NCBI GenBank assembly: GCA_001873215.1
Contig: MNYS01000006.1
Coordinates: forward strand, 1,767-54,838
Source: Candidatus Levybacteria bacterium CG2_30_37_29
GTDB taxonomy: Bacteria > Patescibacteriota > Microgenomatia > Levybacterales > GWA1-39-11
DNA: 53,072 nt
Reading direction: 5' to 3'
The translations under genes and the position numbers were made by a program. Shown here piece by piece: positions 6,988 to 52,562 of this stretch (the stretch's first letter is position 1; the number at the start of each line of letters is the position of its first letter). The notes under the pieces are model-generated. The model ran no database searches, was not told the origin of the DNA, and saw nothing but the letters and a program-made list of their open reading frames with translations.

Positions 6988-7020
6988 TAAGCGCCAACTG
7001 TAACTCCTGTTTTGATTCCT

Positions 7021-7234: not shown

Positions 7235-7396
7235 AACTATGGGGCTACTAATTTTTAATTTACAATTTTTAATTTTTATTGAATTTTCAAGTTAAAATTA
7301 TTTAAACATTATTAATATTTGATTTCAGATTTAAAATTTAAAATTTGTAATTCTTAAGGCTTTAGGTTTGTAGTTGATTTTGCTATACTACATTTA

Positions 7397-10150: not shown

Positions 10151-10151
10151 A

Positions 10152-10385
10152 TCTTTGTACTTTCGTTCCGGCGAAAGTACCAAAGACTCTCGTCGGGTCT
10201 TGTTCATACCATTCAAAAGCTCACTCATTCAGGGAAGTACCGGACTCTCCACCAGTCGGCGGATCGCCTTTCAACTTCTTGTTCCTTCGTTCGTTCACTT
10301 CTTCATGGGATTCACTTCGAATCGACGACTATGATGGCGCGTGAAACGGCGAATTTTGGAAAATGATCCTTGAAAATTTAAAATT
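10152..10385 (+). repeat. Hairpin-rich intergenic repeat family, copy B (lacks the 5' hairpin)
   Basis: Contains GTACTTTCG-TTCCGG-CGAAAGTAC followed by CCAAAGACTCTCGTCGGGTCTTGTTC, the block GCTCACTCATT, and the end TTCATGGGATTCACTTCGAATCGACGAC. It begins 2 nt after the leuS stop. Confidence 0.75.
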
Positions 10386-10397
10386 TAAAACTTAAAA

Positions 10398-11051: not shown

Positions 11052-12296
11052 ATGCGCCTCGTAATTGTTTTTATTCTAATAACAGTCGTTTTGTTTTCCG
11101 CAAGAATTATTTTTTTTTATACAACATCACCAAATTTTCAAAAAGGGGAGGATGTTAATTTCACTTATACTTTTTTTTCCGACCCGACAAGAATTCCCAG
11201 CGGATACCTTTTAAAAGTAAAAAACATAAGAATATTTTTACCTAAAACTCAAGAGTTTTCTTACGGAGAGACTGTTGCCATAAAAGGGAAAATTACAGAA
11301 CAAGAGAGAGTTAGCAAAAGAGACAACCTTTTGCTAAAAGAACTGGTAATCAATAATCCTGAAGTAGAAAAAATCAAAAACAATAATTTTTTGTTATCAC
11401 TAACGTCGGTTATCCGCCAAAAAGTCACCAGTATTTATGGGAAATATTTAGGACAGAATGAGTCGGGTCTTTTGATGGGAATTGTTTTTGGGATACGGCA
11501 GGGGATGGATAGCGACCTTTTGGCGGCTTTTAGAACAACAGGAGTCTTGCATGTTATTGCCGCATCAGGAAGCAACGTGAGTCTGGTGTCGGGGTTTTTG
11601 CTAGCAACGTTTTTAGCCTTCATGAAAAGAAGAGTAGCTATACTTTTCACGCTGGCTGGAATAATTTTTTATGCTTTTTTGTCAGGCCTTGACACATCTA
11701 TTGTTAGGGCAAGTCTTATGGCGGCGTTTTCGTACGGTGCTTTGCTTTTCGGCCGCCAAAACTATTCAGTTCTGGCTCTTTATACGACAGGATTTATTAT
11801 GCTATTTGTTGATCCGGAAATTATAGGTGACATTGGGTTTCAATTATCTTTTTTGTCAACTTTTGGCATTCTAATACTCAAACCGCTAATCGATAATGTT
11901 TTATTTAGAAATAGAAATTTTTTTCTGCGTGACGACTTTTCTACAACTATATCGGCGCAAGTCATGACGGTACCAATTATGTTTTCCGCTTTTTCCGCGT
12001 ATTCTTTGATTTCCATCCCTGTAAATTTATTTGTTTTGTGGACCATTCCGCTTCTTATGATTTTGGGAGGTATTGCTGCTGTTGCAAGTTTGTTGTTTTC
12101 TGTTTTTGCTGCGCCCTTTTTGTATCTTTGTCTTCCCCTTTTACTTTACTTTGAAAATATAAGTCTTGCTTTTGCTCGTTATTCATTTCCTGTGCAAATT
12201 GACAAAACACCGCAAGTTTTAATTTTGGGGTACTACATTTTTTTAGCAAGTATTATTTTATTTTTAAACAAACACAGGAAGAATTTTAAATTTTAA
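11052..12296 (+). CDS. comEC: ComEC/Rec2 competence channel, membrane part only
   Basis: Polytopic protein with the motif GLLMGIVFGIRQGMDSDLLAAFRTTGVLHVIAASGSNVSLV. It ends before any metallo-beta-lactamase domain. Confidence 0.85.
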   Translation: MRLVIVFILITVVLFSARIIFFYTTSPNFQKGEDVNFTYTFFSDPTRIPSGYLLKVKNIRIFLPKTQEFSYGETVAIKGKITEQERVSKRDNLLLKELVINNPEVEKIKNNNFLLSLTSVIRQKVTSIYGKYLGQNESGLLMGIVFGIRQGMDSDLLAAFRTTGVLHVIAASGSNVSLVSGFLLATFLAFMKRRVAILFTLAGIIFYAFLSGLDTSIVRASLMAAFSYGALLFGRQNYSVLALYTTGFIMLFVDPEIIGDIGFQLSFLSTFGILILKPLIDNVLFRNRNFFLRDDFSTTISAQVMTVPIMFSAFSAYSLISIPVNLFVLWTIPLLMILGGIAAVASLLFSVFAAPFLYLCLPLLLYFENISLAFARYSFPVQIDKTPQVLILGYYIFLASIILFLNKHRKNFKF

Positions 12297-12335
12297 ATTA
12301 TAAAAGAGAAAAACGTTTAAAAAACAAAAAAAACC

Positions 12336-14223: not shown

Positions 14224-14279
14224 TTTATGATTGATGATTGAAGTTTTGAAAAAAATGGTTAATACTAATAGTTAGTTAG

Positions 14280-14363
14280 AATTTTAAATCAAATATAAAT
14301 TTTAAAATTAAAAACTCTAAAATTAATTTAAAACTTAAAACTTAAAATTGAAAATTTAAAATT
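14280..14363 (+). repeat. About 85-nt AT-rich leader repeat (copy X) ending 8 nt before a start codon
   Basis: AATTTTAAATCAAATATAAATTTTAAAATTAAAAACTCTAA...TTGAAAATTTAAAATT is roughly 85-90% identical by hand alignment to 52478..52554. Confidence 0.7.
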
Positions 14364-14371
14364 TTGAACCT

Positions 14372-20144: not shown

Positions 20145-20159
20145 GAGTCCTTTTTCTTT

Positions 20160-20403
20160 GCGTCTTTTCAAAAAGACGCCCAAAACTTCTTGCGAGTATT
20201 ATTCTTTGTACTTTCGTTCCGGCGAAAGTACCAAAGCCTATCGCCGAGTTTTGTTCCGTGCTTTCAAAACCTCGTTACTCACTGAATTTTCGAGTCCCCT
20301 TCGGCGAAAATTCCGGGCGCTTGCTCCTGGGTTTTTCATGCACTTCACTGCAAATCGGCGATTAAAAAATGAGTATTAGAATATTGATAATTGATTGAAA
20401 ATT
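20160..20403 (+). repeat. Hairpin-rich intergenic repeat family, copy C (most complete)
   Basis: Contains GCGTCTTTTCAAAAAGACGCCCAAAACTTCTTGCGAGT, GTACTTTCG-TTCCGG-CGAAAGTAC, TTACTCACT, TTCATGCACTTCACTGCAAATCGGCGATT and the tail GATAATTGATTGAAAATT. Confidence 0.8.
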
Positions 20404-20530
20404 GCTTGCCCTGAGGGAACCCGAAGGGAAAATTGTAAATTGAAAATTTCTGTCGGAATATTGGTAGGATTTGTGATTGAAGAGGTAAGAAATGAAACAT
20501 GAGGCACTAAGATATGTTTTGATACCCTAG

Positions 20531-24448: not shown

Positions 24449-25339
24449 ATGGGCGCAGAACAAAGACCACCAGCCCCTGAAGCAGAACAGCCACGATCAG
24501 AGTTTTATCAAACACTTGAAAACAGATGGAGTAAGGGACTTTTTGTTTGTGTGGGACTCGATTCGGAATTCGCAAAAATCCCCGATTTTCTTAAGAAGGG
24601 TTCTGTTGTGCAAAATATTTTTAACTTTAATACGCGCATTATTGACGCAACGCACGATTTAGCTCTTGCCTATAAGCCAAACAGTGCATTTTATGAAGAA
24701 ATGGGTGTGGATGGAATTCAGGCGCTTATTCTTACTGCTGATTATGCAAAACGTAAATATCCTGAAATTCCGATTATTCTTGACGCAAAAAGGGCAGACA
24801 TAGGTAACACTAATAACGGGTATGCAAAGTTTGCATTTGATATTGTAGGTGCTGATGCAATAACTGTTCATCCATATTTAGGTAAAGAGGCGTTAAAACC
24901 ATTTCTTAACAGAAAAGATAAAGGCGTAATCGTTTTGTGTAGGACTTCGAACCCAGGAGCGGGAGAGTTTCAGGATTTAATCGTAGACGATTGTAGCTAT
25001 GGAGATACTCCTCTTTTCGGAATGGTTGCGGCAAATGTTTTTCGTGATTGGAACGAACATGGGAATGTAGGATTGGTTGTGGGAGCAACATATCCTGAAG
25101 AACTTGAAAAGGTAAGAAAGACAGTAGGGGATATGCCGATTTTGATTCCGGGTGTTGGGGCACAGGGTGGAGATTTGGAAAAAGCAGTCAGAAATGGTAA
25201 AGATAGTAATAATCAGGGAATGATAATAAATTCTTCAAGAGGGATAATTTTTGCTTCCGGCGGAGAGGATTTTGCAGCAGCCGCAAGAAGAGAAACGCAA
25301 AAATTAACTAATGAAATAAACACCCACCGTCTCGCCTAA
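24449..25339 (+). CDS. pyrF: Orotidine-5'-phosphate decarboxylase, type 2
   Basis: Motifs LFVCVGLDS, ILDAKRADIGNT and PGVGAQGG; the length fits the long type. Confidence 0.85.
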   Translation: MGAEQRPPAPEAEQPRSEFYQTLENRWSKGLFVCVGLDSEFAKIPDFLKKGSVVQNIFNFNTRIIDATHDLALAYKPNSAFYEEMGVDGIQALILTADYAKRKYPEIPIILDAKRADIGNTNNGYAKFAFDIVGADAITVHPYLGKEALKPFLNRKDKGVIVLCRTSNPGAGEFQDLIVDDCSYGDTPLFGMVAANVFRDWNEHGNVGLVVGATYPEELEKVRKTVGDMPILIPGVGAQGGDLEKAVRNGKDSNNQGMIINSSRGIIFASGGEDFAAAARRETQKLTNEINTHRLA

Positions 25340-26710: not shown

Positions 26711-27088
26711 TTAGCGTTTAGGGTTTAGTTGACCAATCTTTATAATCATAACATGAAGCATGCGTGAAACTTCATTAACCAAGCTTTCAATATCATTGTA
26801 CGAGTTTATATTACCAAATTTTAAGTCTCTTGCTATGGTTAGTTGAGTTTCCAGTTCCAGCAATGATCCGTACGCTATTGAATAGAACTGTGAATATTCC
26901 CTAGAAGATTTTCTTGCATAACCCTCTGCTATATTTGATGGAATTGAAACTGCGGCTCGGCGCATTTGAGAGCTTAAACCATAAATTTCCGATTGAGGAA
27001 AGTTGTTTGTTAGTTTGTAAATTTCTTTTACAAGAGAAATTGATTTCTGCCACACAATTAGTTCTTTGTAAGATTTTATTGATGACAT
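26711..27088 (-). CDS. Four-helix-bundle protein (23S rRNA IVS protein / Avd-like family)
   Basis: Hallmark motifs YKELIVWQKSISLVKEIYKLTNNFPQSEIYGLSSQMRRAAVSIPSNIAEGYAR and GSLLELETQL. Confidence 0.85.
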   Translation of the reverse strand: MSSIKSYKELIVWQKSISLVKEIYKLTNNFPQSEIYGLSSQMRRAAVSIPSNIAEGYARKSSREYSQFYSIAYGSLLELETQLTIARDLKFGNINSYNDIESLVNEVSRMLHVMIIKIGQLNPKR

Positions 27089-28962: not shown

Positions 28963-29086
28963 TGCCGATGTAACCCAGTTGGTACCTGCCTGCCGGCAGG
29001 CAGGGAGTAGCTCTTTCGCCCCAGCACTTTCTTTCCAAATTTGCTAAAATTTGGAATTAGAAATGCGGGGTCCCGTAAAATCGGCT
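28963..29086 (+). pseudogene. tRNA-Thr-like remnant: the 5' half is disrupted by a PAGRQ palindrome in the D-loop and by a hairpin-containing insert after the anticodon-loop start
   Basis: GCCGATGTAACCCAGTTGGTA[CCTGCCTGCCGGCAGGCAGG]GAGTAGCTCTTTCG matches the D-arm and anticodon-stem 5' side of the adjacent tRNA-Thr. It then diverges (CCAAATTT-GCTA-AAATTTGG hairpin) and ends ...AAAATCGGCT, which pairs with the GCCGAT start. No intact T-arm is present. Confidence 0.35.
28986..29003. repeat. PAGRQ-element copy inside the tRNA-like remnant
   Basis: CTGCCTGCCGGCAGGCAG is a perfect 18-bp palindrome. Confidence 0.9.
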
Positions 29087-29087
29087 T

Positions 29088-29159
29088 GCCTGAGTAACTC
29101 AGTGGTAGAGTAGCTCTTTCGTAAAGAGCAAGTCGTGGGTTCGAATCCCACCTCAGGCT
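29088..29159 (+). tRNA. tRNA-Thr (anticodon CGT)
   Basis: Cloverleaf folded by hand. Acceptor GCCTGAG/CTCAGGC, D-arm ACTC-AGTGGTA-GAGT, anticodon arm GCTCT-TTCGTAA-AGAGC, T-arm GTGGG-TTCGAAT-CCCAC. No encoded CCA. Confidence 0.9.
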
Positions 29160-29288
29160 CACATCTTGCAAGCACGATTTGTACTGGGATAAAGAGTAAG
29201 TCCCGAGTTCGATTCTCACCGTTGGCTCAAATATTCCTCCCCCTCTATTTATTTGCTTTTCTAAAAATTAAGAGTATATTGATAGACT

Positions 29289-30299
29289 ATGACAGAAAGA
29301 AAATTTAACAGGCGTCAATTTGGAAGAATAGGCGTGGGTGCTACCGCTATGGCTTTTGGTATAGGAGTACGTACGGATTCTGATTTAAGGAATTATTTAG
29401 GCACATTATTTAATGAAGATGTAGATCATAGATTTATCAACAAGCAAGCTCTCCTCTGTGCAAATGAGTGCGGGGATGCAAAAATACCGTTCAGCTTGGC
29501 TTTTGATACAGGACAATTGCCATACAAGCTTCTTGTCCCCGGACTTTCTAAAGCAAACTATCCAGATGTGCCGGATGGTTGGGATTGGAAATTTATTCCA
29601 ATGCTTGCCGCTGATGGTCTGCCGCCGCCAGAACCAAAAAAACCGGAGAGGCCAAAATGGAGCCGCGAAGTTCTCCTAAACCCTGTTTTTAAGGGCCCAA
29701 GTGATCGTCCTTTGGTTGCTTTGACAGTAGATGACGGGTATTTTAACCGCGATGAAATTTTGCAAACAATTGTTGATATGAATGCTTCAGCGACATTTTT
29801 AATAATTGGTTCGGTTATGGATTCTGACCCTAATTTTATTATTAAGGCCAACAATTCTGGAAGAATTACATGGGGAAATCACACATATACCCACATGGAT
29901 TTATCGGCAAAAAGCGTCGATCAAATTCAAAGTGAACTTGGAAGAACTGAAGAAGCCCTCAAAAGAATATGTGGCGCTACAACAATTCCTGTAATGCGTC
30001 CGCCCGGAGGATCAAGGAGCAACACTTCAATTGCGGCCGCTGCAGATTTAGGTCTTAGAACATTTATGTGGAATGTTTCCGGTGATGCGGGGACTCAATG
30101 GACATCTAATAATCCTCAAGCTCTGGTCAATTATTATATGGGTCTTTTGGATGCTCAAACAAATCCGTGGGGATCAATTGTTCTTTTACATTTTAGGACT
30201 TCAACTTCCGCAGCATTGCCGGGAATTATAAAAGGAATCCGCGCCCGCGGAATGGAACCGGTATCTTTTGATAAACTGTATGAAGGCGGAAGAGTCTAG
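29289..30299 (+). CDS. Polysaccharide deacetylase (NodB homology domain) with Tat-like signal
   Basis: The N-terminus NRRQFGRIGVGATAMAFG looks like a Tat signal. Catalytic motifs are ALTVDDGY, GNHTYTHMDL and MRPPGG. Confidence 0.8.
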   Translation: MTERKFNRRQFGRIGVGATAMAFGIGVRTDSDLRNYLGTLFNEDVDHRFINKQALLCANECGDAKIPFSLAFDTGQLPYKLLVPGLSKANYPDVPDGWDWKFIPMLAADGLPPPEPKKPERPKWSREVLLNPVFKGPSDRPLVALTVDDGYFNRDEILQTIVDMNASATFLIIGSVMDSDPNFIIKANNSGRITWGNHTYTHMDLSAKSVDQIQSELGRTEEALKRICGATTIPVMRPPGGSRSNTSIAAAADLGLRTFMWNVSGDAGTQWTSNNPQALVNYYMGLLDAQTNPWGSIVLLHFRTSTSAALPGIIKGIRARGMEPVSFDKLYEGGRV

Positions 30300-30356
30300 G
30301 ACAGCACTACATTTAATCTTATAGTTTTATAATTGTTTTTTTGCTATAATATCCTC

Positions 30357-30917
30357 ATGCAAAAAGAACAAAGTATCAGGCGTATAGAAAAAATATTTGA
30401 CGCACTCGCTCAAGGGTATCCTGCCGGAGAAATTGATGAGCTTATTGAGTTGCAGATAAGACAAGAGAAAGAAATGATTAATCGCGCAGAAGCCGGTTTT
30501 CGTGGTGATAGCTCAGAGAAAAACATTGCAGAAATTGTTTCAGTTCTTCCCTATGTGACTTCGGTACGATGAACACAAAAATTCAGCGAAGAAGACAAAG
30601 AGGGAATCGATATTGTTGTTGGGTTGGATGATGACATATTGCCCGTTGTTTATGTACAGGTGAAATCGAGTAATCACGCAATCTGGTTCTTTGAAAGAGA
30701 AAAAAAGAGACACTTTGGTATTACCGGTTCTGAATTAGATAATTGGTTAATGGAAAATGGATTGTTAATTATAAACGGCGCACAATCAGAAAAATATATT
30801 TTGGATAAATTTGTGAGTAAATTAAATAAAATTAGAAACTACAAAATTCTTGAAGGGAATCCTACGGGAATACCGCCTCTTATCCATCGTCCAGTTCAAG
30901 CAAGCATTGTCCCATAG
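30357..30917 (+). pseudogene. One reading frame interrupted by a single in-frame TGA (30570-30572): a pseudogene, or two small ORFs
   Basis: ORFs 30333..30572 and 30624..30917 are in the same frame (offset 291 nt). The frame reopens immediately after the TGA. The second ORF has no ATG or RBS near its beginning. Confidence 0.4.
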
Positions 30918-31035
30918 TTTGACTTTTGCTTCATTTTCTGTTAGCATTTCCACATTGAATTTCTTTTCGTTTGGGTATTTGCGTGCCTAAAAACGTATTG
31001 AAATTCTTATTTCCCGATTGATTCGGGATTGCTCT

Positions 31036-31064
31036 TTGACAACTTGCGAAAGATTTAATAATAA
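31036..31064 (+). promoter_or_regulatory. Candidate promoter of island 2 (TTGACA, 17 nt, TAATAA); the spacer is the left inverted repeat
   Basis: The -35 is perfect and the -10 is weak. The palindrome TCCCGATTGATTCGGGA (31012-31028) lies just upstream and the 14-bp palindrome TAGCTATATAGCTA (31082-31095) just downstream. Confidence 0.35.
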
Positions 31065-31106
31065 ATTGCTATTTGGCCAGTTAGCTATATAGCTATTAAT
31101 TTTTTT

Positions 31107-31194
31107 GTGGGTGGCAACGCGCGCAGAGCGCGCAATTTTTAATTTTTAATTTTTAATTTTAAATTGCAGGTAAGCTGCTCGGGTTGCCACCTAC
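31107..31194 (+). ncRNA. Structured leader of island 2: a 12-bp outer stem enclosing the GCGCGC-AGA-GCGCGC hairpin, an AT-rich word-repeat linker and the GCAG-GTAAG-CTGC hairpin
   Basis: GTGGGTGGCAAC (31107-31118) pairs with GTTGCCACCTAC (31183-31194), giving 11 Watson-Crick pairs plus 1 G-U. The inner hairpin is followed by AATTTTTAATTTTT, which is terminator-like. Confidence 0.45.
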
Positions 31195-31234
31195 AAGGTG
31201 AGTTTTTAACCCCAAGGAGGGTAAATAGGAGGAA

Positions 31235-31555
31235 GTGACCGAAGGTTACGACCTCAAGGAGGGTCCGATCATCAAGTTGGATCCGGTCGGAAGACACGGA
31301 TACGTACTCGATGAAACGACAGGTAAGCCTTACTTTTTCTACTTTACTCATCGCCGCATGGCCGTGATTTTTCGCGGACATGTCGACTTTGGGAACAAGA
31401 CGACTAAGCAAGGATTTCACCTTCGCGCAGCGATTCGATGTGTATTCACACTAACGAAAAACGTACGCGGAGAAACCGTAGTCCATCGTATCGCACCAGC
31501 GGACGATTGGCACAACCTTGAGATATCAATCTCGTCAAACACCAGTTTGGCGTAG
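31235..31555 (+). CDS. Island-2 ORF1, small beta-rich protein; possible OB/cold-shock-like fold (weak)
   Basis: GTG start with AAGGAGG/AGGAGG upstream. GPIIKLDPVGRHGYVLDETTGKPYFFYFTH loosely resembles a CSD core; this rests on inference only. Confidence 0.45.
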   Translation: MTEGYDLKEGPIIKLDPVGRHGYVLDETTGKPYFFYFTHRRMAVIFRGHVDFGNKTTKQGFHLRAAIRCVFTLTKNVRGETVVHRIAPADDWHNLEISISSNTSLA

Positions 31556-31596
31556 ATACGACCGGAATTCAGACAAGCGCATGGAGGCGCAAGTAA

Positions 31597-31881
31597 ATGA
31601 TACAGTTCAGCATCTCCTTTGGAGAAGCTCAAATCCTGAGGCCCGCGCTCCAGGAAAATTTCTCGCGCATGGATGCGGGGCAGGCACAGGTGCTCTTGAG
31701 TATCGCAAAACGTTTCGAAATGTTCGGAATCGCATTTGCGGTAGACGAAACGCCGTATGCAGGCTCAATTCCACATTCTTACATGAGGGCAACCTTTTCC
31801 CCCGAATTTTTGGGACTGGTCAAGGCCATTCTCATGGGGAACACCATCGGATCGGACGGGAAGTCCTTCATCGTCCCTTAG
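31597..31881 (+). CDS. Island-2 ORF2, hypothetical 94-aa protein
   Basis: ATG preceded by GGAGG at about 9 nt. No family recognised. Confidence 0.45.
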   Translation: MIQFSISFGEAQILRPALQENFSRMDAGQAQVLLSIAKRFEMFGIAFAVDETPYAGSIPHSYMRATFSPEFLGLVKAILMGNTIGSDGKSFIVP

Positions 31882-31952
31882 GGCAATACCCGAGAGCGGT
31901 AAAGGACTAAGCCCGAATAGCGACAATTAGACAGAACCGATGGGAGGGTTCT

Positions 31953-32165
31953 ATGAGTCAAGATACAGCAGTCAAGCTAGCCATTTGGGTCTTTGCGGGC
32001 GTCATCGCGCTCCTCCTCGCGGCAGCCGTGGCGTTCACCGTCAATATCTGGAAGGGTGTCGAGCGGAACGGAAAGTTCTCTCTTGTAGCCATCTGGGTAC
32101 TGTTCGCCATGATCATCGCGTGCACAACAGCAGGAGCTGCGCTGTACGTCGTCGTCCTGACCTAG
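31953..32165 (+). CDS. Island-2 ORF3, 70-aa two-TM membrane protein
   Basis: ATG preceded by GGGAGGG. Two hydrophobic helices (LAIWVFAGVIALLLAAAVAF and LVAIWVLFAMIIACTTAGAALYVVV). Confidence 0.55.
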   Translation: MSQDTAVKLAIWVFAGVIALLLAAAVAFTVNIWKGVERNGKFSLVAIWVLFAMIIACTTAGAALYVVVLT

Positions 32166-32221
32166 TTCGGTAGCCATCCGAACAGCGAATCGGAGTTCAA
32201 GCACACATGGAGGTGTAGCTA

Positions 32222-32524
32222 ATGTCAATTGAGGGAGGACCCGGGGGTAGTGTCGAGCGAGAACCTGGAATCAGGTCAGCTCAGGCATCAACTTTGCGGG
32301 TTAACTGTCGCTTTTGCGAAGGCTCCGGGCTCGGCCTCCTACGTCCCGACGAATCGGGCGAAGCTTTCTTCTGCGCAGCGTGCGACGGCCATGGATTCAT
32401 TACGGCTACACGCTTCACAGGTTTGAGGGTTCTTGCTTCGGTGAAAAAGGTTTCACGGCACCCTGACGCGCAGGGAAATCCCGTGACCTACAAGGGATTT
32501 CTTGCAGGGAAGCGGCCGACCTAA
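32222..32524 (+). CDS. Island-2 ORF4, small DnaJ-type zinc-finger protein (two CxxCxGxG motifs)
   Basis: ATG preceded by GGAGGTG. The motifs are CRFCEGSG and CAACDGHG. Its stop codon is the first triplet of the right inverted repeat. Confidence 0.55.
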   Translation: MSIEGGPGGSVEREPGIRSAQASTLRVNCRFCEGSGLGLLRPDESGEAFFCAACDGHGFITATRFTGLRVLASVKKVSRHPDAQGNPVTYKGFLAGKRPT

Positions 32525-32705
32525 ATCTTTCGCAAGTACGTATCAGTCTTTACCCAAGCGGCAAAAGGGCCAAAAGCCCACGCATCTGCCGTAGAGGTAG
32601 GACAAAGATACTCCCGAGTTTCTCGGGTACACACACGTGCCGCCGCTTCCTTCACAGGAAACGGCGGCACACCACAACTTTTCCTCTATTACTTTTAATT
32701 TCCTC

Positions 32706-32925
32706 TGCGTCTTTTGAAAAGACGCCCAAAACTTCTTGCGAGTGAAGCCGGACTATTTTTGTTCGTTCACTTGTCGGGTGATTTCACCCCTTCCTCGATC
32801 CTTCGGACGAGGAATCCCCCTGACGCATTCACTCACAAAAACTTAACGTCCTAATGCTTCAATCGCAAGGAGAAAGCATAAATACAAGCGACGAACATGA
32901 GAGCTTTCACGGCGAATCGCCGACT
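32706..32925 (+). repeat. Hairpin-rich intergenic repeat family, copy E
   Basis: Contains GCGTCTTTTGAAAAGACGCCCAAAACTTCTTGCGAGT, the block CATTCACTCAC and the end GCTTTCACGGCGAATCGCCGAC. Confidence 0.7.
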
Positions 32926-32983
32926 AGAATTTGAGACTTTATTGTTTAATAATTTCCCTTTTCTTTGTTATAATATTCTTTGC

Positions 32984-33055
32984 GCCGAAGTAACTCAGCG
33001 GTAGAGTAGCTGTTTTGTAAACAGCAAGTCGCGGGTTCGAATCCCGCCTTCGGCT
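32984..33055 (+). tRNA. tRNA-Thr (anticodon TGT)
   Basis: Acceptor GCCGAAG/CTTCGGC, D-arm ACTC-AGCGGTA-GAGT, anticodon arm GCTGT-TTTGTAA-ACAGC, T-arm GCGGG-TTCGAAT-CCCGC. Confidence 0.9.
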
Positions 33056-33085
33056 CAAAAAACGTAAACAGCCTTTCGATAAATC

Positions 33086-33234
33086 TCAGGGTAAACAAGT
33101 CTGGGGTCTCGCGAAGCGAGATTCTCTCACTGAGGAGCACATTCGATTTTCTCAGTGCGACGAATGTGTTCGTTCTTTTTGCTTTGCAAAAAGCGACGCG
33201 ATCCGCCAATTCGCGGATCGAGCGAATCCCTGAG
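33086..33234 (+). ncRNA. Densely structured GC-richer element downstream of tRNA-Thr(TGT), closed by CTCAGGG/CCCTGAG
   Basis: Hairpins are TCTCGC-GAA-GCGAGA, TTTTTGC-TTT-GCAAAAA and CGATCCGC-CAATTC-GCGGATCG. Stems CACTGAG/CTCAGTG (33128-34 with 33151-57) and CACATTCG/CGAATGTG (33138-45 with 33161-68) interleave. Confidence 0.35.
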
Positions 33235-33292
33235 GCGGCTCAAATCCTTTATGTCATTGATAACTAAGTGAAAAATATAGTACTATAATTGT

Positions 33293-33883
33293 GTGAAAAG
33301 ACGTCTTGTTGTTCTCGGAGTTTTTATTAGTGTTATTGCTCTGGTTGCTTATATTTTAGAAAAGCCTTCGGTCGCGCGCCTCAGCCAAAAAGAAAAGGAA
33401 GCGGCACTTACCAAACTTCTTGGAAGAAAAGTTAATTTAAACGAAAAAAATGTTCCCAAAGGAAATGTTGAATTCAGGGGTAAATATATATCTTTTTGGT
33501 ACCCAAAAAAAGCAATAAAATATGAGAAGACTGATCCTAGTTTTGCCTCCTCAAGCGCTCTTCTGGACTTTTTAAGTTTTGACATTAAAGAACCAAGGAC
33601 AATTTTTAATATGGTTGTCGTAAAAAACGATGCAAACATTCAAACAATAGATGATGATCCCGGTGTCATGCTTCGGCGCAACTCGACAAGTTATAAAGAA
33701 AGTAAAATTATTGCAGGCGGTTTGGAATGGAAAGTTTATGAGAAAAAAGAATCACAGCAGTCTGAAAAAACAGCGTTTCTTTTGCACAAAAATAGGCTTT
33801 ATTCGATTGCAATTCTATGCAACGACATAGAGGAGCTTCAAGTGCTTTTCGGCGATATTTTGCGCTCCGTGAAGATTTTTTAG
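33293..33883 (+). CDS. Membrane-anchored hypothetical protein
   Basis: GTG start, N-terminal TM LVVLGVFISVIALVAYIL. No family recognised. Confidence 0.5.
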   Translation: MKRRLVVLGVFISVIALVAYILEKPSVARLSQKEKEAALTKLLGRKVNLNEKNVPKGNVEFRGKYISFWYPKKAIKYEKTDPSFASSSALLDFLSFDIKEPRTIFNMVVVKNDANIQTIDDDPGVMLRRNSTSYKESKIIAGGLEWKVYEKKESQQSEKTAFLLHKNRLYSIAILCNDIEELQVLFGDILRSVKIF

Positions 33884-34791
33884 TTCTTCTTCTTTTTCCT
33901 TACCCTTCTTGCGATAATACTTCCCGCAACCAGTAGCGCAATAAGGCCTGCAATTGTTATCTTTATATCAATAGACCCTTCGGTAAAGATTTGTGTTTTT
34001 GTCTCAATGGTTTTATTTGCTTTTCCATAACGAAGTTTTATTACTGCAGTGTAAGTTCCTGGGGAAATAAAGCTTTGCAACGGTTTTATCGCAAGCGTGT
34101 ACTTTCTGATTGATTCGGGAAGTGTGATAAGAGAGTCTTCATTGACAATGCCTTTTCCGACAACCTTATTATTTGAATCGGTTATTTCGACTGTACCGTA
34201 AGGAGCAAGATCAACATTGCCGGTATTTTGAAACCTGAAAATTGCTTTTTTTGGAAATTGGAAAAAGTTTTGCTCAAGACCAAAAAAAGCAATTTTTGCT
34301 TCTTCGATTTCAAATCCGGTGTGTGCCCGGACAAAGAGTAGACTTGCCAATATGGCTTTTACCTGAACTTTTTTCTTTTCCGTTGTTTGTACGATTTCAG
34401 CAAGAATGCTTCCATAATGGCCACCGGGACTTAATTTTTCTTTGGTAATTGACGCTTTTACTTGGCGTTTTTCACCGGGAGCCAAAAGTAAAGTTTGTTT
34501 GTCCAAATAGACCCACGAAGAAAGTGAATATTTATAATTTTGCGCATTTTTTGGGTCAAGAAATCCTACCGGATTTCTTTCTTCAAGCTCTGCGACATCG
34601 TGAACAGATAGTTTTAGCTCAAGGGCTGAAGAAGTGTTATTTGTGTAATAAATTATTGCTTCTGGCGCGTCATTTGCCAAGTCAATTTGCGTAAGTTGGG
34701 GAGTAACTTGTATGTTTTGTTCTGCAAAAGACACGGAGGCAAAAGCCATAAATCCAATAAAAAGTAAAAGCCCAAGGAATAACTTTTTCAT
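33880..34791 (-). CDS. Secreted two-beta-sandwich protein with C-terminal TM anchor (paralogue family)
   Basis: ORF track 33880..34833. The internal ATG gives the signal peptide MKKLFLGLLLFIGFMAFASVSFA and removes the overlap with 34802. The TM is ITIAGLIALLVAGSII followed by ARRVRKKKKN. Confidence 0.6.
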   Translation of the reverse strand: MKKLFLGLLLFIGFMAFASVSFAEQNIQVTPQLTQIDLANDAPEAIIYYTNNTSSALELKLSVHDVAELEERNPVGFLDPKNAQNYKYSLSSWVYLDKQTLLLAPGEKRQVKASITKEKLSPGGHYGSILAEIVQTTEKKKVQVKAILASLLFVRAHTGFEIEEAKIAFFGLEQNFFQFPKKAIFRFQNTGNVDLAPYGTVEITDSNNKVVGKGIVNEDSLITLPESIRKYTLAIKPLQSFISPGTYTAVIKLRYGKANKTIETKTQIFTEGSIDIKITIAGLIALLVAGSIIARRVRKKKKN

Positions 34792-34801
34792 AAAAAAGAA
34801 A

Positions 34802-35854
34802 TTAGCGAAGATTTTTTTGACGCTTAAGTTCACGACGTATGTAACCCTTCAGAACAAATTTGACTATAATAAAGAGCGCGATAAGAGAAATACCGATGAG
34901 AATAAGAGGACCATATGGAATAATCCAGAATTTAGTACTTCCTTCAAGCGTAACATCCCGTTTTCCGTCATCAAAAACCATTAAAAGAGAAGCAGTATAT
35001 GGCCCAAACCGAAAACTCGTGAACTTATTCCAGTTGACGACAATATGAGTTATGGGATTTCCTTTTGCGTCAACCTTTACTTTATTGTCTTCCATAACAG
35101 GCTCTTTTACCAAAAATCCATCATTCCAGCTTGCGCTAAAAGAACGCGTTCCATCAGGTAAAACACTAATTTGAGTTGGGTTGATTTCAAGAATTCCTAT
35201 CTCTTTTTGATTTGTGCCGCGTATAAATATATTACCTCTCGGTCTTATGTGAACATTCCCCTTGTTGGCTATTCTAGCTGTGAATTCAACCGGAAGATAT
35301 TCGCTTATGAAAGAATTTGTCTTAAATTCAAGAACTTGTGCTTCAGTCTTGACCCCCTCCTTTTTCACATTAAGAAGTGTCGGGATAAGAATTTCACCTT
35401 TAACCTCCGCGCCGACACCCTTAAATTGCTGGTCTGATTTTTCTGCAATCCGGAATACATAATAATAACCGAATGCCGCACTTTGAGGAATTTCAATTGT
35501 GAATGAAACATCTATCCATTCTTTTGGCAGAGCGTTAAAATTGGGTGAATCAAAAGTAACCCAGGAGATAAATTCGTCATCCGGACCCGGATTAGCAGGT
35601 ACCGGTTCACCATTTGTTGAATTGGCAACCAGCTTCAAAGTAGAAACAGAAAGATTTACTGACTGGGAAAGGTTATTTCTGATTCTGAATTTCTCCTTTA
35701 TTTTATCTCCCGGCTTTACATTAAGCTCAATAACAGGAGGACTAACGGTAATATCAAGACCTCCTGCGCTTTGAGCATTTGTTTTGATGGAAAAGATTAC
35801 AATGGCTGCTAGAAGAGTAAGAAGAGTTATGCTTGCGATAAATATTTTTTTCAT
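34802..35854 (-). CDS. Secreted two-beta-sandwich protein with C-terminal TM anchor (paralogue family)
   Basis: Signal peptide MKKIFIASITLLTLLAAIVIFSIKTNAQ. Motifs ITVSPPVIELNVKPGDKIKEKFRIRNN and GNVHIRPRGNIFIRG. The TM is followed by RRELKRQKNLR. Confidence 0.6.
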   Translation of the reverse strand: MKKIFIASITLLTLLAAIVIFSIKTNAQSAGGLDITVSPPVIELNVKPGDKIKEKFRIRNNLSQSVNLSVSTLKLVANSTNGEPVPANPGPDDEFISWVTFDSPNFNALPKEWIDVSFTIEIPQSAAFGYYYVFRIAEKSDQQFKGVGAEVKGEILIPTLLNVKKEGVKTEAQVLEFKTNSFISEYLPVEFTARIANKGNVHIRPRGNIFIRGTNQKEIGILEINPTQISVLPDGTRSFSASWNDGFLVKEPVMEDNKVKVDAKGNPITHIVVNWNKFTSFRFGPYTASLLMVFDDGKRDVTLEGSTKFWIIPYGPLILIGISLIALFIIVKFVLKGYIRRELKRQKNLR

Positions 35855-38244: not shown

Positions 38245-38631
38245 TTATGATTTCTGATTAATGAATGTCTTACTTTTTCTTATAAAGCCCTGTAATAGTC
38301 GATCAACAATGTCTGTTTGTTCCGTTAAAATTTTAAGATCCATTTCTGATAGACAATCAACATCTTTTGCGATTAATATAAAATTTTTAAGCTCTGAAAG
38401 CGACCCTTTTGACATATAGTAGAATTGAACTTTTTCTCTGTAGCCTTGTCTTCCAAAGCCTTCCGTAATGTTCCCTGTTATCGAAGCTGCAGCTCGTCTC
38501 ATTTGGTCTATTAGAGAGTATGTTTCTTCTCGAGGGAAACTCTTGGTGATTTTATAAGTCATAATTACAAGCTTATGTCCTTCCCTCCATACACTCAAAT
38601 CCGTAAATGATTCTATTTTCCCGTTTTTCAT
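38245..38631 (-). CDS. Four-helix-bundle protein (23S rRNA IVS protein / Avd-like family)
   Basis: Motifs FTDLSVWREGHKLVIMTYKITKSFPREETYSLIDQMRRAAASITGNITEGFGR and GSLSELKNF. Confidence 0.85.
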   Translation of the reverse strand: MKNGKIESFTDLSVWREGHKLVIMTYKITKSFPREETYSLIDQMRRAAASITGNITEGFGRQGYREKVQFYYMSKGSLSELKNFILIAKDVDCLSEMDLKILTEQTDIVDRLLQGFIRKSKTFINQKS

Positions 38632-46500: not shown

Positions 46501-48054
46501 AACATAGGACAGTCCTATCCGGTTGCCTTGTCCGGAAGAGTTCCGGTTAAAGTAACTACCGAAAACGGAGAAATAAAGGTTGGAGATTTTGTAACATCTT
46601 CTTCTACCAAAGGCTTCGGAATGAAAGCAACAAGCGCAGGTAGAGTTTTAGGACAGGCTTTGGAATCATTTGATTCTGTAACTACATATGTATGCCCTGC
46701 GGGAACCAAAGAAAATATAAAGTGCGCATCAGTAATGGTTTTTGTAAACCTGACCAATTATTTTGGACAGTCAATTGATATAGCTATGGTACAAAGTCCA
46801 AGCGCCAACCTGAAAGTTTCAGGCCTTAATATTGCACCCAATTCTCAAACTTCAACGCAAGGTCTAACAAGCGCAGATTCAGATATATTTATACCATCGG
46901 CCCAAGCGCCGGATAAAGAGTCACAAATATTAGCATTTCTTGAAAAATCCCAACAGCAAGCAAGCGTATCTGCCCAGCTTTCTGAAATTTTCACGGGAAG
47001 AGTGAGTGCAACAAGTGCCGTAGTTGCGCCTTTAATTGTGACGGATACCTTGTATGCTAAAAAAATTAAAGCTGATTCGATAGAAGGTTTGGAGTTTCTT
47101 ATTAATAATGGAATTAAAAACTTCGGAGCAACCGATTCGGCAAATCTTGTAAGTTCCGAATCTGCCCAGACAAAACTTACGGGGAAAGTTGCGGCGGGCG
47201 ACATTGAAGGACTTCCTGATTTAATCGCAAGTCTTATTCAGCGCGATGTCAAGGGAATTGCGACTTCAAGCGGTCAGACAACGGTTGTTCCCGACGGACT
47301 TATTGCTCTTGGTCCGACAACTTTTGGCGAGGCAAGCATTCTTGACAGACTTACTGTAGGGACAGGATTTATTCTGGAACACAATTCTGTCAATGTACTT
47401 GGTACTGATTTTGAAATACAATCGCTTCGCCAGGGCGGCGTATCATTCCTCGGGGGACTTGTTAGTATTTCAACAGACGGCGTATTCAAAGTCGCAGGAC
47501 AGTCTGTTTTTGAAGGAGATACGGTATTTAAAAACATTACGATTTTCTTTGCAAAGGCGATATTTAAGAGTGACGTTGAATTTGAGAAGCCGCCTGTTTT
47601 TGCGCGAGACACTGCAGGAACAGTTGTTGTCAAAAAAAGTGAAGACAGGGCTGAAGTAAAATTTGATACAGAATATCCAAATGTGCCAAGAGTTAATACA
47701 ACTCTTGAAATTGCAGAAGTAAAATTGCTTGATGGAACCGCCGAGGAAAGCCTTGTTACGGAGCAGAGAATTTTGCAAGCGGGATATAGTTATGTGGTTT
47801 CCAAAAAGAACGTTGGGGGATTTGCGATTGTTTTGAATAAGAAAGCCGCAGAAGACCTTACATTTTCATGGACGGCGATTGGTGCAAAAGAATCTTTGCA
47901 AACAAACGGTTCAACAAGTATTTCGGCGACAAGTCCTACGGGTTCGGCAAGCTCACCGCAAGCTCCAACGCCTACGATTTCTGAAACGATTTTGTTACCA
48001 GGGTTGCAGATGGTGGGAGAGATAGCGGGCGTGGCGACGGAAAGCGCACAGTAA
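43588..48054 (+). CDS. Giant membrane-anchored surface protein (1488 aa): WDGxxW beta-propeller-like repeats, two ~150-aa tandem domains and a DLAEYY...-type C-terminal module
   Basis: Starts 4 nt after the previous stop. It has an N-terminal TM and five W(D/N)G(S/T)xW repeats (YRAWDGSAFG, YNTWNGSAWG, YVWDGTQWG, QVWDGTQWL, RLWDGSSWS). The tandem domains share NVTSIK..E...V.A...L.NV.. ..Y.E.A.CS.TVP. Confidence 0.7.
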   Translation: MHILNKKLNLKSKILKKGLGWSKKSLAIVLILLLQASYFYLPLSRYFNQKSPIPKVEAANANGMVVYPVTGSNIPRYRAWDGSAFGTENNAAAAVSVIQYSVLQESPTRSEHILGTLANTGVITFQVENGSWGNEVSSTPGVGTTNDAYRGFDVAYEQLSGDGLVVYEDNSSANTDIKYNTWNGSAWGGEQSLTVNSANVLWVRMETKPLTNEIMLVTLDSNSGIYAYVWDGTQWGSGQLLTDAASFTTSPILDVAYENTSGDAMVAYGTGTTWDYWTYVGTTWTDGTNGSTCAGDGTTNACANVEGTVVNLNLSGSSENNSIAVAIEETTGDDFIAQVWDGTQWLAMPQAVTLWDEAGAVENAASEMAQNVVYEAAGNRFMFLYALNGTFAATYFFYDLDDSTWYNGDGTTSITDIDSVNTTTGNITTDDLAWINVKANPDDASQIMLTANDIDKVSRSRLWDGSSWSTPTNGDHGINTSSLIGGQAYFAWDRTLNVTTVGTSGSQNSTLAITATDKHVGGAFTLINSLSSANVTSIKISEKGNVNANSNLTNVKLLYKQEATCSSTVPAGTTQFGTTGTFNASDESTFTGTMSVGTSQICVYVTLDIGSGASAGQTVEIEITAPQSDVTSAANAIAPSTALAISGTSTLEAAALTVAASGTQKTEMGIPSDDNFIGASFTFVRNVGSTNVTSIKFTETNTVDADVELSNVDVYYKEEASCSETVPGDATLFNVSTGSFVAADTVTVTGTMPVDTDQTCVYFTLNVTSAADDADLFDIEITNPSTDVAVSSNTVTPATVIALSGSTPLVAPSYVSYGSPFLYTQANWNSGSGSSFTFEVYWKKTIGNVFARVWDETSSAEVTGSVVYISDSTFVRTRTGDLTLTDGHIYRAQLGHVTGASGEVYSAKLLSDGSGGGADLAEYYHSNEPLQLGEVVSIDSSKVAFVKGSSKPYQGDVLGAVSTQPGIILGANIGQSYPVALSGRVPVKVTTENGEIKVGDFVTSSSTKGFGMKATSAGRVLGQALESFDSVTTYVCPAGTKENIKCASVMVFVNLTNYFGQSIDIAMVQSPSANLKVSGLNIAPNSQTSTQGLTSADSDIFIPSAQAPDKESQILAFLEKSQQQASVSAQLSEIFTGRVSATSAVVAPLIVTDTLYAKKIKADSIEGLEFLINNGIKNFGATDSANLVSSESAQTKLTGKVAAGDIEGLPDLIASLIQRDVKGIATSSGQTTVVPDGLIALGPTTFGEASILDRLTVGTGFILEHNSVNVLGTDFEIQSLRQGGVSFLGGLVSISTDGVFKVAGQSVFEGDTVFKNITIFFAKAIFKSDVEFEKPPVFARDTAGTVVVKKSEDRAEVKFDTEYPNVPRVNTTLEIAEVKLLDGTAEESLVTEQRILQAGYSYVVSKKNVGGFAIVLNKKAAEDLTFSWTAIGAKESLQTNGSTSISATSPTGSASSPQAPTPTISETILLPGLQMVGEIAGVATESAQ

Positions 48055-48110
48055 GTTTAATTTTAAATTTTCAATTTTAAATTTTAAATCAAATCAAAAT
48101 ACAAATCAAA

Positions 48111-48470
48111 ATGACAAGCAATAATAAAACATATGATCTTGAGGAAAGAACTGCAAAGTTTGGAGAGGCAATAATTGACGTTTGTAAAAAAGTATCAAAA
48201 GATACGGTTTCAGCTCCAATTATTACCCAGTTGGTAAAAGCAGGGACGAGCATCGGAGCAAATTATTATGAAGCAAATGGTGCTTCAAGTAAAAAAGATT
48301 TTCTGAACAAGATATTTATTGCAAAAAAAGAAGCAAGAGAAACAAAATATTGGTTACGAATGGTTGTAAAATTGCAGACAGATTTGAGGGATTCGTGTTC
48401 GGTGCTCTGGAAGGAAGCACAAGAACTGACGCTTATTTTTTCAAAAATAGCCATTACGACAAAAAAATGA
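48111..48470 (+). CDS. Four-helix-bundle protein (23S rRNA IVS protein / Avd-like family), divergent
   Basis: Motif YDLEERTAKFGEAIIDVCKKV...IITQLVKAGTSIGANYYEANGASSKKDFLNKIFIAKKEARETKYWLRM. Confidence 0.75.
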   Translation: MTSNNKTYDLEERTAKFGEAIIDVCKKVSKDTVSAPIITQLVKAGTSIGANYYEANGASSKKDFLNKIFIAKKEARETKYWLRMVVKLQTDLRDSCSVLWKEAQELTLIFSKIAITTKK

Positions 48471-48669
48471 AATTTAATATTTATTATTCATTTAAAATTG
48501 TAAATTTAAAATTTAAAATTTATAAGCGGATGTCTATGCACAATTTAATTAAAAAAGTTGTGTTGAGGTGGAAGGCTTTTTTTAAGCGCTTCCCGATAGC
48601 ACAACTTTATACATACAAAATTTAGAAGGACGAGGTTAATTTTTTCTTCTCTTGACACTTGACGACACT

Positions 48670-48703: not shown

Positions 48704-49375
48704 ATGAGAAAAGTGTCGCTTACAACAAACAATATTTACCATATATTTAATAGAGGAGTGAATAAGGCCCCAGTTTTTTTCGGCGATGACGATCGCCGTC
48801 AATTCATAAAGAGTATCGTTCATTATTTAAGTCACTCAGGTAAATTAAGCTACCGCTCCAATGCACCCAGCGAATCTAACGAAGCTAACGATCCCGTATC
48901 GTTAGCTTCAGGAGAAGTTGATATAATTTTCCCTAAGGTGGAGATACTTGCATACTGTCTCATGCCAAACCATTTTCATCTATTGCTTAAGCAGAAAGAA
49001 GAAGGTGGAATTACGTGGTTTATGCGTCGCGCAATGAACAGTTATGTACACTTTATAAACGTAAAACATAAAAGGGTAGGTCCGTTATTTCAGGGAAGGT
49101 TTAAAAGCGTGCATATTGAAACAGATGAACAATTAATTCATCTTTCCCGATACATCCATTTAAATCCGGTAGTTGGTAATCTAGTAAAAAACATAAATGA
49201 TTATCCCTGGAGTTCGTTTCAGGAGTATTTTCAGCTTGATAAAAAGAGGATTGTTAATGCAGATGCTGTTCTTAATCAGTTTGCTGACAAGAAGGCTTAT
49301 GAACAGTTTGTGATTGATCATATTGATTACGCAAAGATGCTTGATGCGATAAAGCATTTAACCTTCGAGGACTAA
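48704..49375 (+). mobile_element. REP-associated tyrosine transposase (RAYT; IS200/IS605-like Y1 HUH family) gene
   Basis: The HUH motif is LMPNHFHLLLK and the catalytic-Tyr region is LSRYIHLNPVVGNLV followed by DYPWSSFQEY. The same REP hairpin lies on both sides. Confidence 0.8.
48883..48907. repeat. REP hairpin with a 10-bp stem (AGCTAACGAT-CCCGT-ATCGTTAGCT) inside the RAYT reading frame
   Basis: It encodes EANDPVSLA within SESNEANDPVSLASGE, and the frame is maintained. Confidence 0.85.
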
Positions 49376-52440: not shown

Positions 52441-52477
52441 ATACTATACAAATAACAATTTTAAATTATAAATTACA

Positions 52478-52554
52478 AATTTTAAATCAAGTATAAATTT
52501 TAAAATTAAAAACTTTAACATTCAATTAAAATTTAAAATTGAAAATTTAAAATT
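52478..52554 (+). repeat. AT-rich leader repeat (copy Y) ending 8 nt before a start codon
   Basis: Aligns with 14280..14363. Confidence 0.7.
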
Positions 52555-52562
52555 ATACCGGT

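Follow-up and report, generated by a model that had tools for sequence, protein, structure and literature searches.

The question raised by this locus is what a short block of GC-rich DNA with four small genes represents in an otherwise AT-rich genome, and what role, if any, is played by the perfect inverted repeat that brackets it. The block (31005–32700, henceforth the main block, also counted as cassette 3) is part of a window of 53,072 nt, i.e. the whole stretch of DNA from Candidatus Levybacteria bacterium CG2_30_37_29 that was analyzed, and all positions are coordinates of this window. An earlier account of the same DNA, made from its letters alone (the sequence-only reading), had drawn attention to the block and had proposed for the repeat the terminal repeats of a mobile cassette, paired binding sites for a regulator or a recombinase-invertible segment. 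The analyses described here show that the main block is a compositionally foreign, self-contained four-gene unit. For the repeat they lead us to favor, tentatively and at less than even confidence, a different explanation: in an acquired operon of orphan genes, the leader may pair with the bases immediately past the last stop codon and thereby enclose the coding region.

The GC content is 0.508 over the whole of the main block and 0.533 over its coding part (31235–32524), as compared to 0.395 and 0.378 in the flanking regions (29161–31004 and 33060–35000, respectively) and 0.397 for the entire window. The sequence-only reading had estimated more than 50% inside and about one-third outside, of which the first figure holds and the second is slightly low. 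At the third codon position, the GC content (GC3) of the open reading frames (ORFs) ORF1–ORF4 is 0.54, 0.63, 0.70, and 0.54, whereas values of 0.26–0.35 were obtained for all of the approximately 36 ORFs of the host. A two-boundary likelihood fit placed the GC-rich segment at 31165–33239, a region that also spans the repeat element and the tRNA gene located downstream. Two other GC-rich blocks, one in the window (cassette 1) and the other on a contig from the same aquifer (L064), were compared with the main block. The three blocks resemble each other, and not the host, in both codon and tetranucleotide usage: the correlations of the main block with the other two were r = 0.34–0.38 for codons and r = 0.39–0.65 for tetranucleotides, whereas those with the host ranged from -0.18 to 0.24. 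The GC3 and tetranucleotide usage thus show the deviant composition that characterizes tRNA-associated genomic islands, and the composition check that had been proposed finds the block to be foreign by GC, GC3, codon usage, and tetranucleotide usage alike.

The four ORFs (Table 1) are co-directional and non-overlapping, and all four are preceded by the sequence GGAGG or GGGAGG, located 5–9 nt 5' of the start codon, as expected from the earlier description of small co-directional ORFs with strong Shine-Dalgarno sequences. ORFs on one strand cover 0.89 of the block, compared with a mean of 0.51 for shuffled sequences (a coverage reached by 0.3% of the shuffles), and the GC content follows a three-base periodicity across the codon positions (0.556, 0.452, and 0.596). 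The ORF coverage, the periodicity, and the GGAGG sites all support coding. The 94-aa protein, the 70-aa protein with two transmembrane (TM) helices and the protein with two CxxCxGxG motifs that had been described are all present, as ORF2, ORF3, and ORF4, respectively. It was also observed that the ribosome-binding sites (RBSs) of ORF2, ORF3, and ORF4 each lie in the loop of a short hairpin (31577–31590, 31933–31952, and 32203–32216), the stems of which differ (GCGC-AUGGAG-GCGC, AGAACC-GAUGGGAG-GGUUCU, and ACAC-AUGGAG-GUGU, in the same order).

No relatives of the encoded proteins were found. A word-index search of 5.8 billion proteins with ORF1, ORF2, and ORF4 returned only the query proteins themselves; a 99%-identical match to ORF2 (P0003) exists, and a look-up of this match found nothing. 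A full HMMER search of ORF1 against 1.84 billion representative sequences gave two weak matches, both to Ig-like strand repeats within very large proteins; as these matches are amplified by the repeats, they were judged to be spurious. Searches of the block proteins against Pfam, PHROGs, PADLOC, NCBIfam, and PDB sequences produced nothing above threshold, and the earlier statement that none of them matches a recognized system is borne out by these and the billion-protein searches. ORF4 matched the Pfam family DnaJ_CXXCXGXG (PF00684) with an E-value of 2.6e-5 (24.8 bits, under the gathering cut-off of 32.7), Anti-TRAP (PF15777) with an E-value of 8.4e-5 (22.9 bits, under the cut-off of 32), and the NCBIfam entry RtpA with an E-value of 0.0059. 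Although it shares two CxxCxGxG motifs with DnaJ-like spacing with the central zinc-finger domain of DnaJ and with Anti-TRAP, ORF4 falls below the cut-offs of these families, lacks a J domain, and has unrelated N- and C-terminal parts. Single-sequence AlphaFold2 predictions for ORF1 and ORF2 had pLDDT values of 42.6 and 43.1, which are too low for a meaningful fold comparison. A lysis cassette was considered in view of the two TM helices of ORF3 and was rejected, as this protein has no charged tail and no endolysin is present; a toxin-antitoxin or defence system was likewise rejected, there being no matches. The block proteins are orphans, without a homologue in the databases searched. The main block is best regarded as a small "genomic islet" of orphan genes that an AT-rich groundwater bacterium has acquired by horizontal transfer.

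The two arms of the repeat (31042–31057 and 32522–32537) are exact reverse complements, and their coordinates and perfection were both correctly given by the sequence-only reading, as was the fact that the right arm starts at the stop codon (TAA) of the last ORF. The complementarity ends sharply, with not one further base on either side and no degenerate extension, and the 16-mer has no internal dyad symmetry. In cassette 1, which is the only other place in the window with foreign codon usage, the order of elements on the coding strand is TTTGACA-A-TTCGTAGGTCA ... TGA-9 nt-TGACCTACGAA. The two cassettes therefore have a common layout, in which one arm is found directly after TTTGACAA and its complement 0–9 nt from the last stop codon, and their arm sequences are unrelated. 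Because position and complementarity are common to both cassettes while the sequences are unrelated, and a protein-binding site predicts otherwise, a base-paired element is favored.

The operon of the main block is equipped with a promoter region of its own, strong RBSs, and a leader and a 3' trailer that are both structured. If the arms are base-paired, they would be the two strands of a long-range helix enclosing the whole coding region. This helix would act on the transcript, either as an RNase III-type processing or stabilizing stem, or as a fold-back governing translation or decay. In model transcripts of 1.5–1.7 kb, the long-range helices of both cassettes form part of the minimum-energy fold, with pair probabilities of 0.8–1.0 and duplex energies of -20.9 and -16.3 kcal/mol; in the folded model transcript of cassette 1, the helix is extended by TGAC/GTCA across a small internal loop. 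A long-range duplex enclosing a functional RNA, as in RNase III-type bracketing, is thus present as a prediction only. Since promoter-like sites are found upstream of the arms in both cassettes (30919–30947 for the main block and, for cassette 1, an extended -10 sequence, TGgTATAAT, read from the sequence about 130 nt upstream of the arm), both arms are plausibly part of one RNA; in the main block, the left arm would be transcribed if the candidate promoter upstream of it is used. We infer that transcription includes the left arm, and that the modeled helix would form in the cell and be cleaved or read by something. The stems of rRNA precursors and of 23S intervening sequences are RNase III substrates, and the hok mRNA has a 5'–3' fold-back. 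In all of these, as is proposed for the main block, distant complements enclose a functional part of the RNA, and the sequences likewise vary from unit to unit although their position and complementarity are preserved. The proposed stem differs from them in that a polycistronic orphan mRNA would be enclosed, and in that its putative helix is of only 11–16 bp.

A number of observations weigh against such a stem. When the window was simulated 200 times with a first-order Markov model, exact inverted pairs of 16 nt separated by 100–2500 nt occurred at a rate of 0.125 per simulated window, and 7.5% of the windows held at least one (the sequence-only reading had estimated a chance expectation of about 0.03); three other such pairs are present in the real window, all of them derived from an AT-rich intergenic repeat. 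The 16-bp repeat by itself is only marginally beyond chance, and it is suggestive but not compelling. Further, if the TTGACA at 31036 is a working -35 element, transcription would start at about 31070 and the left arm would be outside the RNA, and a terminator-like hairpin (31012–31028) is located just upstream of this arm. The 11-mer of cassette 1 is weak when taken alone, as at 5 of the 65 TTGACA sites of the window the adjoining downstream 24 nt have a complementary stretch of 11 nt or more within the next 4 kb, and this arm is unusual only by its place beside the last stop codon, which was noticed after the fact. No homologous cassette that could show conservation or covariation of the arms was found in any database searched. 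Lastly, all of the arm pairs are Watson-Crick, so that neither the strand of the helix nor its nature as RNA or DNA is indicated by them.

Chance is a serious rival to the RNA stem, albeit in our estimate a somewhat unlikely explanation. According to it, the main block is an ordinary orphan islet whose repeat has no function, the 16-mer being due to chance or a relic (of an old hairpin or of fold-back repair), and the 11-mer of cassette 1 is a coincidence. The frequency of such 16-mers in the simulations and of complements of 11–12 nt after TTGACA (the 5 of 65 sites noted above) is in its favor, as are the sharp edges of the complementarity; short intergenic repeats in both orientations are also abundant, so that inverted repeats bracketing genes are frequent in this genome. 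What chance explains less readily is that the 16-mer is unique and not of low complexity. A search for further copies in the window, with up to three mismatches, found none beyond the chance rate, the other matches being in coding sequence, and among 2.9 million viral contigs there were 30 single matches and no pairs. It also has to account for both cassettes having an arm right after TTTGACAA and another 0–9 nt from the last stop codon; for this positional coincidence in cassette 1, a rough estimate is <1e-3, before allowing for its post-hoc choice.

We consider it quite improbable that a protein of the cassette (e.g. the zinc-finger ORF4, or ORF1) binds the two arms as a pair of DNA sites, one in the promoter spacer and the other at the end of the operon, and thereby represses the promoter, perhaps by forming a DNA loop of some 1.5 kb. 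The left arm exactly fills the 16–17 nt after TTGACA; however, the 16-mer lacks internal dyad symmetry, and its placement exactly after a stop codon at the other end has no obvious rationale. Each cassette has its own arm sequence together with its own proteins, and ORF4 has its two CxxCxGxG motifs, but zinc fingers of the DnaJ and Anti-TRAP types are known for binding proteins and not DNA, and no helix-turn-helix match was found in any cassette protein (Pfam, NCBIfam). Palindromes of the CCGATTNAATCGG type are present beside both promoters, but the -10 sequence is poor in both cassettes. In this regard, the claim that the left arm separates a perfect TTGACA from a -10 box is correct for the TTGACA (31036–31041), whereas the TAATAA that would serve as the -10 was not accepted by the promoter scan.

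Very doubtful also is the view that a non-autonomous mobile cassette (a mobile insertion cassette or a MITE with cargo) has the arms as its terminal inverted repeats, or that the hairpins near the ends are those of an IS200/IS605-like element moved in trans by the Y1 transposase encoded at 48704–49375. The main block is foreign DNA without a transposase of its own, its genes are bracketed by an inverted repeat, similar small palindromes occur near both ends of both cassettes, and a possible source of transposase is provided by the above gene (Y1_Tnp, PF01797, E = 1.5e-7) and by a second Y1_Tnp 10 kb further on, beyond the window. However, there is no target-site duplication (the flanks are ...CTCTTTGACA / ...TTTGACA on the left and ACGTATCA... 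/ ACGTATCAGT... on the right), and the repeat does not mark the limits of the GC-rich segment as fitted: its left arm falls some 120 nt outside this segment and its right arm some 700 nt within it, whereas both arms of cassette 1 are 55–160 nt inside the segment fitted there. Moreover, the 16-mer occurs in the window only as this pair and in the viral contigs only as unpaired single matches, the two cassettes differ in their arm sequences and in the order of the CCGATTNAATCGG-type palindromes relative to TTGACA and the arms, and 15 of 15 contigs (see below) are occupied, with no empty site. Excision would join ...TTTGACA directly to ACGTATCAG..., with or without one arm.

There are known precedents for a mobile cassette of this kind, with which the main block can be compared. 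In mobile insertion cassettes, passenger genes are located between inverted repeats derived from an insertion sequence (IS) and are moved in trans (PMC4337579). Like them, the block has transposase-free passenger genes between inverted repeats, but it has no cognate IS, target duplication, or second copy, and the foreign DNA does not end at its repeats. The Correia repeat enclosed elements of Neisseria have inverted repeats that create promoters (PMC2649163); as in the block, these repeats overlap promoter-like hexamers, and when transcribed they can form RNase III substrates, as is proposed here for the arms. However, the Correia elements are 100–150 bp long and non-coding, and they occur in hundreds of copies with the same repeat and a TA target duplication, whereas the block has a single pair around 1.46 kb of genes and no duplication.

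It is highly unlikely that a site-specific recombinase uses the arms as crossover sites to invert the 1.46-kb segment, as an ON/OFF switch in which the -35 would be parted from both the -10 and the genes. An exact inverted repeat with its left arm between -35-like and -10-like hexamers would be suitable for this, and the same position is seen in cassette 1; but cassette 1 has this geometry with a different arm sequence, which argues against a single sequence-specific recombinase, and the two cassettes would require different ones. Scans with Pfam, NCBIfam, and PADLOC found no invertase or tyrosine-recombinase gene in or beside either cassette, in keeping with the earlier statement that no recombinase lies inside the block (profile scans of the cassette proteins found none), and the only transposase-like gene near it, among the cassette proteins and their neighbours, is the Y1_Tnp 16 kb away. 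The segment is also far larger than known invertible promoters, and a single orientation is seen in 15 of 15 assemblies from at least 14 samples, at the level of assemblies. Inversion would create the junctions CTCTTTGACA-ACTTGCGAAAGATTTA-GGTCGGCCGCTTCCC and GCAATTTATTAT-TAAATCTTTCGCAAGT-ACGTATCAGTC. Neither the end of a transposon nor the crossover site in a DNA switch is a supported reading of the repeat.

The remaining candidates can be dismissed briefly. In an integron cassette, an ORF that lacks a promoter precedes an attC site whose cores read RYYYAAC and GTTRRRY, whereas the four ORFs of the main block come with a leader and a promoter-like region, and no attC-like site is visible in its sequence; an integrase-type tRNA island was rejected because there is no integrase, the block is upstream of tRNA-Thr(UGU), and the tRNA fragments at 29210–29231 and 33223–33244 do not flank it.

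To gather contigs, exact look-ups were made with ORF1, ORF4, the flanking 196-aa and 97-aa proteins, and a protein of cassette 1, and the same context was found every time. The contigs are from metagenome-assembled genomes at NCBI (GCA_002790535.1, GCA_002793055.1, and GCA_002773275.1), several ENA projects, JGI groundwater metagenomes, and Logan. Both arms are spanned by 15 independent contigs from at least 14 samples, produced by several assemblers, and all of these have identical junctions at the same site and in the same orientation, which excludes the chimeric assembly join that had been considered as a possible cause of the block. There are zero substitutions in the region 30900–33100 across the 15 contigs, all of which are collinear with the window; a seeming divergence is due to a scaffold gap in one contig (L091) and a run of Ns in another (L008). 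No empty site, inverted form, or second location was found among these contigs, and cassette 1 is present in all contigs examined. A genome scan with the neighbouring deacetylase retrieved only distant, non-syntenic loci and no sister species, and an exact look-up of the protein at the edge of the window (2465–3487) found nothing. The main block is fixed at one site in one population.

Within this population, the gene content of the block varies. Two contigs, L011 (JGI 3300008007) and L006, have an extra 263 bp between ORF1 and ORF2, which encodes a fifth gene of 65 aa with an H-x3-C-x2-C motif and a weak match to zf-HC2 (E = 0.072). In these variant strains the 65-aa gene is flanked by two direct copies of AAGCGCATGGAGGCGCA, and the window thus shows a unit of five genes in a state reduced to four, the probable cause being a deletion between these repeats. 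This variation, together with the second cassette and the structured downstream element described below, is an addition to what the sequence-only reading had reported. A different kind of variation was observed in contig L004, positions 81–270 of which differ from the window (24768–24955) at about 55 positions in 190 bp of an OMP-decarboxylase-like gene and are identical to it elsewhere; this looks like a local recombination tract.

Table 1. Positions of features in and around the main block and cassette 1 (window coordinates, unless a contig is named).
Feature	Position	Strand	Remarks
Candidate upstream promoter TTGACT-17-TAGCAT	30919–30947	+	9/12 positions; consensus match only
Palindromic, terminator-like hairpin TCCCGATTGATTCGGGA	31012–31028	+	CCGATTNAATCGG family
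TTGACA, -35-like	31036–31041	+	Inside TTTGACAA, directly 5' of left arm
Left arm ACTTGCGAAAGATTTA	31042–31057	+	16-bp perfect inverted repeat
TAATAA, -10-like, AT-rich	31059–31064	+	3/6 match to TATAAT; rejected by promoter scan
Long leader hairpin	31105–31196	+	Folding -63.2 kcal/mol, z = -5.3; AT-rich repeat 31132–31168 in apical part
ORF1	31235–31555	+	106 aa, GTG start; orphan; all-beta prediction of low confidence
Junction repeat AAGCGCATGGAGGCGCA	31575–31591	+	17 bp, holds RBS; L011 and L006 compared with window
Fifth-gene insert	L011 5108–5340; L006 3708–3797; after window 31591		Comparison of contigs with window
ORF2	31597–31881	+	94 aa; orphan
ORF3	31953–32165	+	70 aa; two long hydrophobic helices (translation); GC3 0.70
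ORF4	32222–32524	+	100 aa; two CxxCxGxG zinc-finger motifs, CRFCEGSG and CAACDGHG
Right arm TAAATCTTTCGCAAGT	32522–32537	+	Exact reverse complement of left arm; begins with TAA stop of ORF4
3' trailer hairpin CCCGAGTTTCTCGGG	32612–32628	+	Complementary to hairpin 31012–31028
GC-rich 15-bp hairpin, then T-rich tract	32637–32670	+	Inverted repeat
Multi-copy structured intergenic element, copy 3	32699–32944	+	Invariant 8-bp hairpin and 10-bp closing stem around variable interior
tRNA-Thr(UGU)	32984–33056	+	tRNA search
Cassette 1, GC-rich orphan	5695–7232	-	ORFs 6373–6987 and 5873–6400; GC3 0.55 and 0.62
Cassette 1 TTGACA	7072–7067	-	Within TTTGACAA; one A between TTGACA and arm
Cassette 1 arm TTCGTAGGTCA	7065–7055	-	11-mer
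Cassette 1 complementary arm TGACCTACGAA	5863–5853	-	9 nt past last stop codon

Besides the 16-bp repeat, several smaller palindromes and hairpins were identified (Table 1). Each end of the two cassettes has a palindrome of the CCGATTNAATCGG type in its vicinity (5772, 7039, and 31014, and a similar one at 32614), where about 0.1 would be expected by chance. Outside the 16-bp helix, the sequences at 31013–31028 and 32612–32627 may also form pairs between them. We read these palindromes as probable local hairpins or protein-binding sites and not as transposon ends. The GC-rich hairpin at 32637–32670 likely marks the end of the transcription unit.

Cassette 1 is flanked by AT-rich repeats on both sides, and its proteins have no family match in Pfam, NCBIfam, or PADLOC and no viral relatives in the viral contigs. 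The third GC-rich block, which consists of small minus-strand orphan ORFs (L064 1640–3695), adjoins a copy of the structured element, and its upstream end is off the contig. A change from the window sequence to this L064 block was observed in contig L007 (tail 3136–3346), at window position 32875, inside the structured element. It is conceivable, but in our judgment improbable, that the GC-rich orphan cassettes (at least three, two of them in the window and one on L064) form a class of "stem-bracketed" foreign operons that is defined by structure. Its members would have a leader arm by TTTGACAA, the complement right after the last stop codon, and CCGATTNAATCGG-type hairpins near both ends, and the helix would be a handle for processing, or for the movement of a folded single-stranded RNA or DNA, perhaps by the Y1 (IS200-like) transposases, which are abundant in this genome. 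The stem-bracket layout, of which there are two instances, is the one feature that could lift the main block above the ordinary.

The tRNA-Thr gene and the repeat copy that had been noted downstream of the block are both present, at 32984–33056 and 32699–32944, respectively. The latter is a copy of a structured element that has four copies in the window (5380–5679, 20155–20429, 32702–32944, and 10150–10385, the last one truncated) and another on L064 (1437–1634). It consists of an invariant 8-bp hairpin GCGTCTTTTNAAAAGACGC followed by a 10-bp closing stem (CTTCTTGCGA / TCGCAAGGAG) with a variable interior, and the folding z-score of copy 3 is -5.0. All of the copies are located just 3' of the end of a gene; a specific tie to the GC-rich cassettes was rejected, as two of the four window copies follow ordinary host genes. 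Rfam searches at both gathering and permissive thresholds identified only two tRNAs and gave no match for the element, and a scan of the viral contigs for its repeat core gave chance matches or none. Its closing stem and the 16-bp repeat both contain the heptamer CTTGCGA/TCGCAAG.

An AT-rich intergenic repeat family (AAAATTTAAAATT...) was also observed, with copies at 5656–5693, 7246–7325, 10370–10402, 12282–12313, 14276–14365, 31132–31168, 48052–48094, 48459–48526, and 52445–52558. A gene or operon is often flanked by two of these repeats in opposite orientations, which produces perfect inverted repeats of 16–17 bp (e.g. 10375/12284 and 48073/48505). In the leucyl-tRNA synthetase gene (7397–10150), there are two near-identical inserts (VSSSKYQVLSKKEEILN[A/T]KY[V/I]IHNT...), and the AT-rich repeat itself encodes a further stretch (NLKFQISNQIPN); therefore the intergenic repeats seem to have entered the coding sequence of this gene. 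The tRNA-Thr loci are rearranged as well. The 5' half of a tRNA is broken by a palindromic insert (28965–29020), and remnants of tRNA 3' ends are seen at 29185–29231 and 33223–33244 (within the regions 28965–29231 and 33100–33244). In some strains the window's copy of tRNA-Thr(UGU) is interrupted and is followed by a different, intact tRNA-Thr(UGU) (L094 1408–1618; L093 201–275), and the tRNA-like fragment at 33223–33244 matches this alternative copy. Lastly, three genes for four-helix-bundle proteins of the 23S-rRNA-intervening-sequence or bAvd-like type were noted, two of which adjoin IS200-like Y1 transposase genes (loci at 26711–27088, 38245–38631, 48111–48470, and 48704–49375; also L079 7392–8958). 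The gene at 26711–27088 is bracketed by a 14-bp inverted repeat (26696 / 27088) that overlaps its start codon.

Small islets of horizontally acquired orphan genes have been documented in genomes of the Patescibacteria, or candidate phyla radiation (CPR) (PMC12455944). The bacterium studied here probably belongs to the CPR. The main block is similar to these in its deviant GC content and codon usage, its accessory genes of unknown function, its location adjacent to a tRNA gene, and its variation in gene content. It differs from them in being only about 1.7 kb long, in having no integrase or delimiting direct repeats, in lying upstream of the tRNA, and in being fixed in all of the sampled contigs, and no donor or homologue of it was found.

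Groundwater CPR bacteria have tiny genomes and are dependent on other cells. Compact foreign orphan operons that appear to be strongly expressed are, in such organisms, candidates for functions in host interaction or for functions derived from phages, and the lack of any relatives among several billion proteins indicates that much of this gene pool is still unsampled. If the pairing of the arms is due to chance, the finding reduces to an ordinary small island. If, on the other hand, leaders really do pair with the sequence past the last stop codon, and do so generally, the foreign operons in these genomes would share a structural rule for their processing, stability, or mobility, and such a rule could be searched for without sequence similarity.

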